From a virus (Duplodnaviria > Heunggongvirae > Uroviricota > Caudoviricetes): a stretch of 39,548 nucleotides of DNA. Shown one piece after another: positions 1,981 through 2,680 of the stretch. The position numbers were made by a program, and so were the translations under genes. The stretch is taken from IMG/VR virus record IMGVR_UViG_2519899835_000008; one strand, given 5' to 3'. The notes under the pieces are model-generated. The model saw nothing but the letters and a program-made list of their open reading frames with translations, made no database searches and was not told the DNA's origin. Every line of letters starts with the position of its first letter. The first letter of the stretch is position 1.

Positions 1981-2187
1981 ATGGATAAACTAACCACAGA
2001 CCCAAAGTTACAGGCTGCGCGAATTGCAGCTGATATTACAATTGCAGCAATGACATCCACCAGGGGTAACTTTACCTCTTTTCATACAGCAGGTGATTCA
2101 TCCGCTATGCAGTTATGGAACGCGTGCTTTTCTGATGTAATTCGTGCAATCAGCGAGTCAGTTGACCTTCGCGAACCGCAAAAATAG
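1981..2187 (+). CDS. Hypothetical small protein (68 aa)
   Basis: ORF with AGGAAAA ribosome-binding site 5 nt upstream of ATG; plausible codon usage; converges on and overlaps the 3' end of the minus-strand ORF 2150-2350. Confidence 0.3.
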   Translation: MDKLTTDPKLQAARIAADITIAAMTSTRGNFTSFHTAGDSSAMQLWNACFSDVIRAISESVDLREPQK

Positions 2188-2350
2188 CGCATCTTGGGGT
2201 ACACAGGATCTGCATAGCTATCCACATTGCGGTGGCGAAGTTTCGATCCTGTAATGTATCTTCATCAAGTCCTGAACGTAGCGCATTGATAATTTCCGCG
2301 CTTAATCTTTCTAGGCCTTTGGTATCAGGTTGCTTTTTATTCTTGTCCAT
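2150..2350 (-). CDS. Hypothetical small protein (66 aa, start at internal Met of ORF 2150..2386)
   Basis: AGAGGA ribosome-binding site 7 nt upstream of ATG at 2350; lies downstream of the terminator hairpin at 2380-2419. Confidence 0.4.
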   Translation of the reverse strand: MDKNKKQPDTKGLERLSAEIINALRSGLDEDTLQDRNFATAMWIAMQILCTPRCAIFAVREGQLTR

Positions 2351-2379
2351 GATTATTGTCCTCTGATTGGTATATAAAG

Positions 2380-2419
2380 CGCCCATGAAAATAAAACCGA
2401 CAGGAGAAACTGCCGGTTT
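2380..2419 (-). terminator. Rho-independent terminator for minus-strand transcripts
   Basis: Stem AAACCGaCAG / CTGcCGGTTT with GAGAAA loop (2394-2419); on the minus-strand transcript it is followed by UUAUUUUCAU; sits just after the stop of ORF 2426-2680. Confidence 0.5.
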
Positions 2420-2425
2420 GTATTG

Positions 2426-2680
2426 TTACATCATGGTGCTGTCAGTTCCGGGCTGAGCCGGTTCTGGTTGCTCTGGCTGCGCGTCGGTTTTCGGTTCATT
2501 ATCAGCATCACTGGCCGCTGCTGCTGGCCCAATAAGTTTTTCCAGCACCTCATCAACGTAAGTGTCGATTTGTGCCTCAAAATCCTTGCGGACCTGCGCT
2601 TTCAGCAACTTATTTACTTCACCGGAATACAGTGCCTGTTTTACCAGGTCTTCAGTGACGGTGCCTTTAATTTCTGGCAT
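2426..2680 (-). CDS. Hypothetical acidic protein (84 aa) with low-complexity Ala/Pro/Glu-rich C-terminus
   Basis: Strong AAGGAGG ribosome-binding site immediately upstream of ATG; followed by an intrinsic terminator. Confidence 0.55.
   Translation of the reverse strand: MPEIKGTVTEDLVKQALYSGEVNKLLKAQVRKDFEAQIDTYVDEVLEKLIGPAAAASDADNEPKTDAQPEQPEPAQPGTDSTMM

Follow-up and report, generated by a model that had tools for sequence, protein, structure and literature searches.

In B. subtilis prophages, the convergent, 3'-overlapping genes of txpA/RatA and bsrG/SR4 form type I toxin-antitoxin loci, and in Mu-like Pseudomonas phages the acr-aca genes are co-directional, come with a helix-turn-helix regulator and lie inside the head-gene operon. 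In phage Mu itself, gin ends at 35673 and com starts at 35768, and the 94 bp between them contain only Pmom. PD-T7-4, or RAZR, is an abortive-infection HEPN RNase with a Zn finger and a DUF4145 domain that is activated by phage portal or Gp77 rings (PMC13017515). Here we analyze positions 1981-2680 of the virus record IMGVR_UViG_2519899835_000008 (39,548 nucleotides; this whole stretch is referred to as the window), which lie within a gin-com junction of about 3.6 kb. An initial annotation of the sequence had described the interval as a cluster of small orphan genes with a dedicated terminator, in a region without genes in Mu, and the comparison with Mu indeed holds. Our best explanation as a whole, to which we assign a probability of roughly 0.55, is that the interval joins two unrelated things: the DUF826 gene with its terminator (2394-2680), and a rare cassette (1961-2390) carrying the convergent genes orf66 and orf68.

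The window is 100% identical to a segment of E. coli FORC_069 (NZ_CP023061.1, 3330327-3369874, reverse strand) and represents a Mu-like prophage that is nearly complete and interrupts a gene for a fimbrial usher. The three open reading frames (ORFs), the convergent overlap and the terminator all lie where they had been placed initially, and the features relevant to the cassette and its surroundings are as follows.

1689-1988, plus strand: orfA, 99 aa, divergent from com (phrog_26524, E 1e-43, profile positions 1-90 of 135)
1846-1875, minus strand: 13-bp perfect hairpin with a U-rich tail, inside orfA (-21.4 kcal/mol, z -6.9)
1961-2390, no strand assigned: swap-in cassette of about 430 bp carrying orf68 and orf66, delimited by homology breakpoints
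1981-2187, plus strand: orf68, 68 aa, converging on orf66 (third-position excess, convergent distant homologues, phrog_25148)
2150-2187, no strand assigned: 38-bp tail-to-tail overlap of the orf66 and orf68 coding sequences
2150-2350, minus strand: orf66, 66 aa, a predicted two-helix hairpin (PGAP WP_001388991.1 in FORC_069)
2394-2419, minus strand: intrinsic terminator, 10-bp stem and UUUUAUUUU tail (pattern scan and folding)
2426-2680, minus strand: DUF826 gene, 84 aa, acidic (PF05696, phrog_311, PGAP WP_001114101.1)

Alignment of related prophages revealed sharp homology breakpoints at ~1961 and ~2390, and the cassette between them has a GC content of 0.44, compared with 0.535 in the window as a whole. 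The variable slot that it fills adjoins com, with com/mom as the right boundary, and can have any of three contents; O157 Sp18-like prophages have a segment coding for a Zn ribbon where the window has the cassette. Among 29 informative IMG/VR loci, the window type with orf66 and orf68 was found in nine, a Zn-ribbon ORF fused or adjacent to orfA (the O157:H7 Sp18-like arrangement) in ten, and an unrelated 86-aa plus-strand ORF in another ten. The comparison with related prophages that had been suggested initially thereby showed the block next to com to be variable cargo. In one locus (L044) an orf66 95% identical to that of the window accompanies an esterase that is 53% and a DUF826 protein that is 72% identical; since the cassette is found with such dissimilar versions of the esterase module, its recombination is independent of that module. 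Across 5426 complete E. coli genomes, 458 match part of 1575-3045, 215 with orfA and 17 with the cassette. The cassette DNA found no match in 50,697 phage records, and tblastn of orf66 or of orf68-like protein against the same collection gave no hit, or only the two Mu-in-Stx (Shiga toxin phage) records.

Both cassette genes behave as coding sequence. Nine distinct cassette sequences were used for the coding-constraint counts, in which 14/22 variable sites of orf66 fall at third codon positions (P = 0.003), as do 15/22 of those in orf68 outside the overlap (P = 0.0009). Compared with the STEC299 type, orf66 displays 12 synonymous and 3 non-synonymous differences, with a ratio of non-synonymous to synonymous polymorphism (pN/pS) of 0.07, against ~1 and an undefined value (no synonymous differences) in the shifted control frames. 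Within the 38-bp overlap, three of the five changes occupy orf66 third positions, so that orf66 is better preserved there than orf68. The lack of coding conservation that the initial annotation had envisaged as fatal was hence not encountered, and neither is the interval mom leader sequence, with the GATC-rich control region at ~1575-1770 outside it and 1981-2680 coding on one or the other strand. The ribosome-binding sites, all initially considered good, are indeed strong for the DUF826 gene (AAGGAGGA, 6 nt ahead of the ATG) and good for orf66 (GAGGA).

It could be argued that only orf66 is a gene, with orf68 being either a fortuitous ORF or the degraded end of orfA. PGAP leaves orf68 uncalled in most genomes, and a word-seeded search of 5.8 billion proteins with orf68 recovered only two near-identical clusters. 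Moreover, one lineage (L004) has a nonsense codon at W46, and in the AST198/CI5/L029 lineage a deletion running from one AGGTGATT direct repeat to the other (L007/L008/L029, at the equivalent of window 1697-2090) removed orfA and the first 37 orf68 codons; orf66 is intact in both. Thus, orf68 is dispensable. Its third-position excess however speaks for a gene, as do full-length homologues with 22-30% identity that share its N- and C-terminal motifs in eight other loci, and the match of family members to phrog_25148, rendering the chance-ORF view extremely unlikely. A specific version, with orf68 as the C-terminal remnant of the 154-aa O157 orfA, was rejected: the O157 tail is a dissimilar Zn ribbon, and homology breaks at ~1961.

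The two genes belong to families that extend well beyond the window. Close homologues of orf66 occur in E. coli only and an exhaustive phmmer search provided three distant representatives, while a profile search brought the family to 18 proteins, every one enterobacterial and none with a Pfam domain, their sources being Salmonella, Klebsiella, Dickeya, Citrobacter and metagenomes. Scans of genomes and metagenomes with the orf66 motif, AMW[IL]AMQxxC(G/T)P, added three new diverged loci. The family members measure ~61-79 aa and, in a 14-sequence alignment, share the invariant core AMWxAMQxxCxPxxA; the window protein matches the profile, which includes it, with E 7.5e-31. Six of the 14 members match phrog_21398 ('unknown function', best E 3.7e-7). 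The window orf66 matches it weakly, the PHROG matches of window orf66 and orf68 having E 0.095 and 0.0027, respectively. The orf68 family (~67-88 aa) is defined by an N-terminal LTTDQ(K/R)(I/L)QxAR(I/M)AAD helix and a C-terminal (F/W)xxx(F/Y) helix, and three of seven members match phrog_25148 ('unknown function', best E 5.2e-6).

Partners resembling orf68 were identified in L133 (Citrobacter), L134/L135, L136, L137, L138, L151 (Dickeya-type), L160 and L161 (Klebsiella sp.). Pairwise blastp between such partners yields E 1e-5 (to L134) to 5e-3; L137 and L138, which were outside the first hidden Markov model (HMM) build, score E 1.9e-12, and L151, L160 and L161 score E 5e-16 to 7e-15. Every match of the orf68 HMM (E 1e-14 to 1e-31) faces the 3' end of an orf66-like gene from the other strand. 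In the diverged pairs (n=9 including the window) the overlaps amount to 38, 23, 23, 20, 26, 26, 29, 26 and 26 bp, hence tail-to-tail overlap is kept in 9/9 pairs despite 22-30% protein identity. The pair occupies three genome positions, the DUF826-com gap, the TerS(gp27)-TerL gap and an early region between repressor and transposase, in Mu-like phages of Citrobacter and Klebsiella, a Dickeya-type phage, metagenomes and E. coli; at two of these junctions, gin-com and TerS-TerL, Mu has no gene. Occurring at three non-homologous positions, the pair therefore travels as one module. As judged from sequence, phrog_21398 and phrog_25148 are families of one two-gene module, a link that is new, as PHROGs has none on record between them. 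The possibility that orf66 and orf68 are paralogues was rejected (hhalign probability 0.06%).

The genomic contexts of the orf66 family were Mu-like in every one read. Most orf66-like genes reside on the late strand between TerS (DUF1804, Mu gp27) and TerL, some with a start overlapping the TerS stop; one is placed between a CI/Cro-like repressor and a Mu-type transposase, and Yersinia phage Tongde, an isolated Muvirus, has a weak member at its TerS-TerL junction. The window has an 82-aa ORF of its own between TerS (gp27) and TerL (26433-26681, minus strand), a junction that is empty in Mu. ORFs preceding orf66-like genes of Tongde and Klebsiella (P0012) share its SAHQKAF motif, which suggests that the TerS-TerL junction is the ancestral home of the orf66 family. 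The 82-aa ORF as a second copy of orf66 was rejected, for it has no orf66 motif.

Such contexts are also the basis of the main rival to the model that we propose below. Here, orf66-like genes would be small late genes of the packaging region and the DNA downstream a landing site for reverse-strand cargo, without any coupling, the E. coli cassette being a fragment that captured both by chance. The prevailing TerS-TerL location with starts overlapping the TerS stop agrees with this, as do orf66-like genes without partner in Dickeya prophages and in Tongde, and partners that are not always orf68-like. Against it stand the joint presence of both families at three non-homologous positions and the overlap maintained throughout the diverged pairs; orf66 is furthermore absent from Mu and most E. 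coli Mu-like prophages, and so is not backbone. We consider this explanation possible, if rather doubtful.

The identity of the reverse-strand gene varies. An opposite-strand gene abuts or overlaps the orf66-like 3' end in Salmonella, Klebsiella, Citrobacter and metagenome loci, and most Dickeya-type loci, as well as Tongde, have orf66-like genes with no partner. In Salmonella and Klebsiella Mu-like prophages the partner is a protein with a Zn finger and DUF4145, with weak PADLOC matches to PD-T7-4 (E 4e-5 to 6e-6), and L132 has at this place a coiled-coil/Zn-ribbon protein of 166 aa that matches no family significantly. Because the partner position holds an orf68-like, RAZR-like or coiled-coil gene or nothing, the orf66-like gene is the constant element and the reverse-strand gene the variable one. 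The RAZR-like gene thus holds the position of orf68, on the opposite strand at the orf66-like 3' end. However, orf68 comprises 68 aa without Zn finger or Rx4-6H motif and is unrelated in sequence, and the window has no DUF4145 gene, with no PADLOC or Pfam DUF4145 match among the ORFs of 1689-2898. The RAZR/PD-T7-4-like genes of Salmonella/Klebsiella Mu-like prophages (L012 6259-7116, L014 6204-6707, L016 6204-6971) are found immediately upstream of the prophage's own terminase and portal genes.

The pair is probably a two-gene accessory module whose members act on each other, and we tentatively propose that orf68 is an effector and orf66 its late-strand antagonist or regulator. The dispensable orf68, on the strand opposite to the late genes, would be expressed independently of late transcription, riding an orfA transcript that diverges from the mom control region, and orf66, on the late strand, would act as the persistent antagonist or regulator. 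Coupling could be exerted via fully overlapping convergent transcripts, via a heterodimer of two helical hairpins, or both. No terminator separates the genes, the nearest strong minus-strand hairpin downstream of orf66 being that at 1846-1875, and thus the mRNAs would be complementary over hundreds of bases, with mutual antisense or transcriptional interference as a likely consequence. The hairpin, which is also present in O157 Sp18-like sequence, is a candidate end point of the orf66 transcript, and with such an end the transcript would be antisense to orf68 over its full length; the hairpin is equally a candidate insulator ahead of Pmom against read-through from the esterase operon. Congruent with the effector/antagonist model, orf66-like genes survive alone, orf68 has been lost by nonsense mutation and by deletion with orf66 under purifying selection, and an RAZR/PD-T7-4-like RNase gene lies opposite orf66-like genes in other phages. 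An extension of the model, which we regard as improbable, is that orf66-like proteins are late self-immunity factors against the prophage's own abortive-infection effectors, orf68-like in the window and RAZR/PD-T7-4-like in Salmonella/Klebsiella.

A toxin-antitoxin module was among the initial suggestions; on this reading the pair would be a toxin-antitoxin or addiction module that stabilizes the prophage, with orf68 as toxin and orf66 as antitoxin. It would account for two small genes travelling together and for a putative antidote, orf66, that persists when orf68 is mutated or deleted, and the convergent 3' overlap recalls type I txpA/RatA. The likeness to the B. subtilis loci, txpA/RatA as well as bsrG/SR4, comprises two small convergent prophage genes whose transcripts should overlap at the 3' ends. 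Both partners in the window, on the other hand, appear to be conserved soluble proteins and are protein-coding under purifying selection, which speaks against a protein/antisense-RNA pair. Neither is hydrophobic, with grand average of hydropathy values of -0.41 for orf66 and -0.19 for orf68, and no membrane-spanning stretch or hydrophobic toxin peptide resembling a membrane toxin is present. Type II systems are co-directional operons, whereas orf66 and orf68 converge, so while the pair is indeed a recurring module, its convergent protein-coding layout is not typical of type II toxin-antitoxin. With no DNA-binding fold predicted in models that are plain two-helix hairpins (orf66 in AlphaFold 2, pLDDT 78.5), no toxin or antitoxin family match (RHH or HTH antitoxins, RelE, MazF or HEPN toxins, for instance) for any ORF in Pfam, NCBIfam or PADLOC, and no match of any kind for orf66 and orf68 in these three, we judge this reading quite improbable.

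Several points weigh against our overall explanation. Only 0.3% of E. coli genomes contain the cassette, in part of them with a decaying orf68, so that any benefit may be small. Only nine diverged pairs are available, the sampling was seeded from orf66, and that orf68-like genes are never alone rests on narrow scanning (a narrower scan with the orf68 alignment recovered one locus, already in the set). The orf68 ribosome-binding site is moderate only (AGGA, 3 nt before the ATG), contrary to the initial assessment, and the AlphaFold 2 model of orf68 has two helices at low confidence (pLDDT 64, shallow alignment). No sigma-70-like promoter was detected for orf66, which is situated directly behind a good terminator. 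It is further hard to picture a specific orf66 binder that neutralizes orf68-like, RAZR-like and 166-aa coiled-coil partners. Finally, synteny is all that connects DUF826 to the esterase.

The second component of the interval is best understood together with the genes at either side, which are as follows.

683-1420, minus strand: mom (com/mom: PF10122 and PF25680)
1374-1574, minus strand: com (com/mom: PF10122 and PF25680)
2716-2898, minus strand: DUF1378 gene, 60 aa, one N-terminal hydrophobic helix (PF07125, E 9e-33, phrog_494)
3043-5097, minus strand: NanS-p-like sialate O-acetylesterase, 684 aa, SASA and DUF6645 (PF03629, PF20350, phrog_143, E 3e-296)
5183-5755, minus strand: gin

The minus-strand order of the right end is thus gin, esterase, DUF1378, DUF826, terminator, orf66, com and mom, with orfA (1689-1988) and orf68 (1981-2187) on the plus strand. 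The 84-aa ORF matches DUF826 at 56.2 bits, against a Pfam gathering cut-off of 25 (E 3.9e-15), and phrog_311 over its full length (E 1e-28). DUF826 directly follows DUF1378 and the SASA-type esterase in the window, and the same order recurs elsewhere. In 80 lambdoid loci seeded with the DUF826 of phage 933W, esterase, DUF1378 and DUF826 are followed by holin S and R in 80/80, as far as the contigs reach. Analogously, 33 Mu-like loci seeded with the window DUF826 have gin, esterase, DUF1378, DUF826, the slot, com, and mom or dcm, where the contig suffices; in one of these (L029) the 2.3-kb space is present without a single long esterase high-scoring segment pair. Downstream of stx2 in 933W itself, after stx2B, are L0105 (the nanS-p esterase, lambdoid counterpart of the window esterase), a 59-aa DUF1378 ORF that is unannotated, DUF826, annotated too long as L0106, and holin S. 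In a survey of Stx2a phages, these DUF826 and DUF1378 ORFs were likewise noted in the stretch from nanS-p to S (PMC10462455).

Compared with the 933W/Stx and lambdoid region, the window has the same three families in the same order and orientation, with a DUF1378 protein of ~60 aa carrying an N-terminal hydrophobic helix and a DUF826 protein whose N-terminal part is helical and conserved and whose acidic tail, rich in Pro, ends with MM(L). In contrast to that region, the window trio lies between gin and com, ends in its own terminator and does not run into S-R-Rz; the esterase differs in its N-terminal region and carries DUF6645, and DUF826 is 41% identical to the 933W protein. The synteny indicates a fixed unit common to two unrelated phage backbones, Mu-like and lambdoid/Stx. 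Because the trio entered Mu-like phages without lysis genes, DUF1378 and DUF826 are probably tied to the esterase and not the holin, and DUF826 may serve as an accessory factor for the esterase and not for lysis. DUF826 is already a catalogued, uncharacterized family, and this part of the finding is ordinary. The 84-aa ORF is, in consequence of its place in the trio, neither an orphan nor an independent gene as the 'cluster' had implied.

The same holds for the terminator, initially assigned to the small-gene cluster. It folds with -14 kcal/mol (z = -6.7, 0/200 shuffles as stable), and a hairpin is kept at this position in other slot types with a different stem sequence. The terminator closes the esterase/DUF1378/DUF826 unit, not the convergent pair, and marks the right edge of the variable slot. 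Terminator-like sites are generally abundant here, with 7 found within 1400-3200 against 1.9 +/- 1.2 expected, and an Rfam scan of the same segment detected no RNA family inside 1981-2680. In the esterase-DUF1378 gap, a weak full-length match to the Esr41 model (2955-3037, plus strand; 22 bits, E 0.23) has TTGACA-like boxes ~40 nt upstream. A strong terminator on the plus strand, with a GC stem of 10 bp and a U7 tail (-20 kcal/mol), forms its end, and the match may be an antisense small RNA gene.

With an isoelectric point (pI) of 4.23 and a net charge of -9 (17 acidic vs 8 basic residues), DUF826 had been proposed as a DNA mimic or anti-defense protein, and more broadly DUF826 or one of the small helical proteins might inhibit host restriction or defense. 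The region is accessory and adjoins mom, an anti-restriction function, and anti-CRISPR genes occupy structural-operon gaps of Mu-like Pseudomonas phages. The resemblance to acr-aca loci and moron slots lies in small fast-swapping genes where Mu has none and in alternative cassettes at one slot; orf66 and orf68 are however convergent and overlapping, without a recognizable DNA-binding domain, orf66 being near neutral (pI 7.8) and orf68 mildly acidic (pI 5.6). DUF826, for its part, always accompanies the esterase and DUF1378 in two unrelated backbones, and its place in the lambdoid late operon is beside the holin. Its pN/pS is 0.12-0.26, with purifying selection on the helical N-terminal 50 residues, and the acidity is concentrated in the variable proline-rich tail, which accepts indels and holds 6/9 of the net negative charges. 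This location argues against a folded DNA mimic. No family was matched that would favor such a role: a PDB search with the family profile gave DUF826 chance-level hits only, with no sequence match to solved DNA mimics or anti-restriction proteins; orf66 and orf68 have no such sequence match either, their family profiles also yielding chance-level PDB hits only, and orf66 has no structural match. With DUF826, tblastn of the 50,697 phage genomes matched at most the two Mu-in-Stx records, and a contig scan with its alignment returned nothing, the patterns being too narrow. An anti-defense role is consequently very unlikely, and neither this nor the toxin-antitoxin reading has positive support.

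On the other side of the cassette, the orfA stop overlaps the orf68 start codon (ATGGATAA), and thus the two are probably one transcription unit. PGAP labels orfA a truncated pseudogene, the O157 version having 154 aa with a Zn-ribbon tail, and nothing was matched in Pfam, NCBIfam or PADLOC. A 79-bp tandem duplication in orfA frameshifts the gene in STEC299-type prophages (L003-L006; equivalent window 1868/1869), and the window and O157-type prophages have one copy of the segment. The orfA start is only 114 bp from com, on the opposite strand, at what we take to be the position of the divergent leftward promoter in Mu. The mom control region is nearly invariant across all slot types. Its GATC cluster (window 1618-1765) is kept and comprises a palindrome with two GATC (~1620-1640) and a further two GATC at ~1745-1765. 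Several related Mu-like prophages carry, in place of mom, a gene for a C5 cytosine DNA methyltransferase of 350 aa (PF00145; L007 1669-2875, L008, L009 3794-5045, L029, L041 and L050), with com still ahead of and overlapping the methyltransferase gene. The Com-dependent translational control cassette thus seems to have been reused for a different DNA-modification enzyme.

Beyond these genes, the fimbrial usher gene is truncated at window 555 and abuts the prophage right end (window 1-682). Those relatives whose surroundings were read are inserted at a torY-side oxidoreductase, an ABC transporter, hofC, dcuC and rhs, and further ones sit inside other prophages, namely Stx phages and a prophage tail-fibre gene; such scattered sites fit random Mu-type transposition. 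A PGAP 'tRNA-OTHER' is annotated at window 21784-21863 (plus strand) in the identical genome FORC_069, and neither ARAGORN nor Rfam at gathering score detected a tRNA anywhere in the window.

From the comparison, the junctions gin-com and TerS-TerL emerge as slots for cargo in the Mu-like phages of enterobacteria. The strict linkage of DUF826 to NanS-p esterases in two phage types provides a clue for the study of these virulence-associated esterases. The lead offered by the convergent pair, two genes in 430 bp, is modest yet tangible, and the pair shares a slot which elsewhere carries the RAZR family of abortive-infection genes. Were the self-immunity proposal true, portal and head assembly would not trigger suicide during induction, the orf66 family would represent a new kind of anti-defense, possibly anti-RAZR, and orf68-like proteins would be minimal effectors of exclusion or abortive infection of a new type. 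The pair therefore bears on how prophages carry suicide-type defenses without killing themselves on induction.

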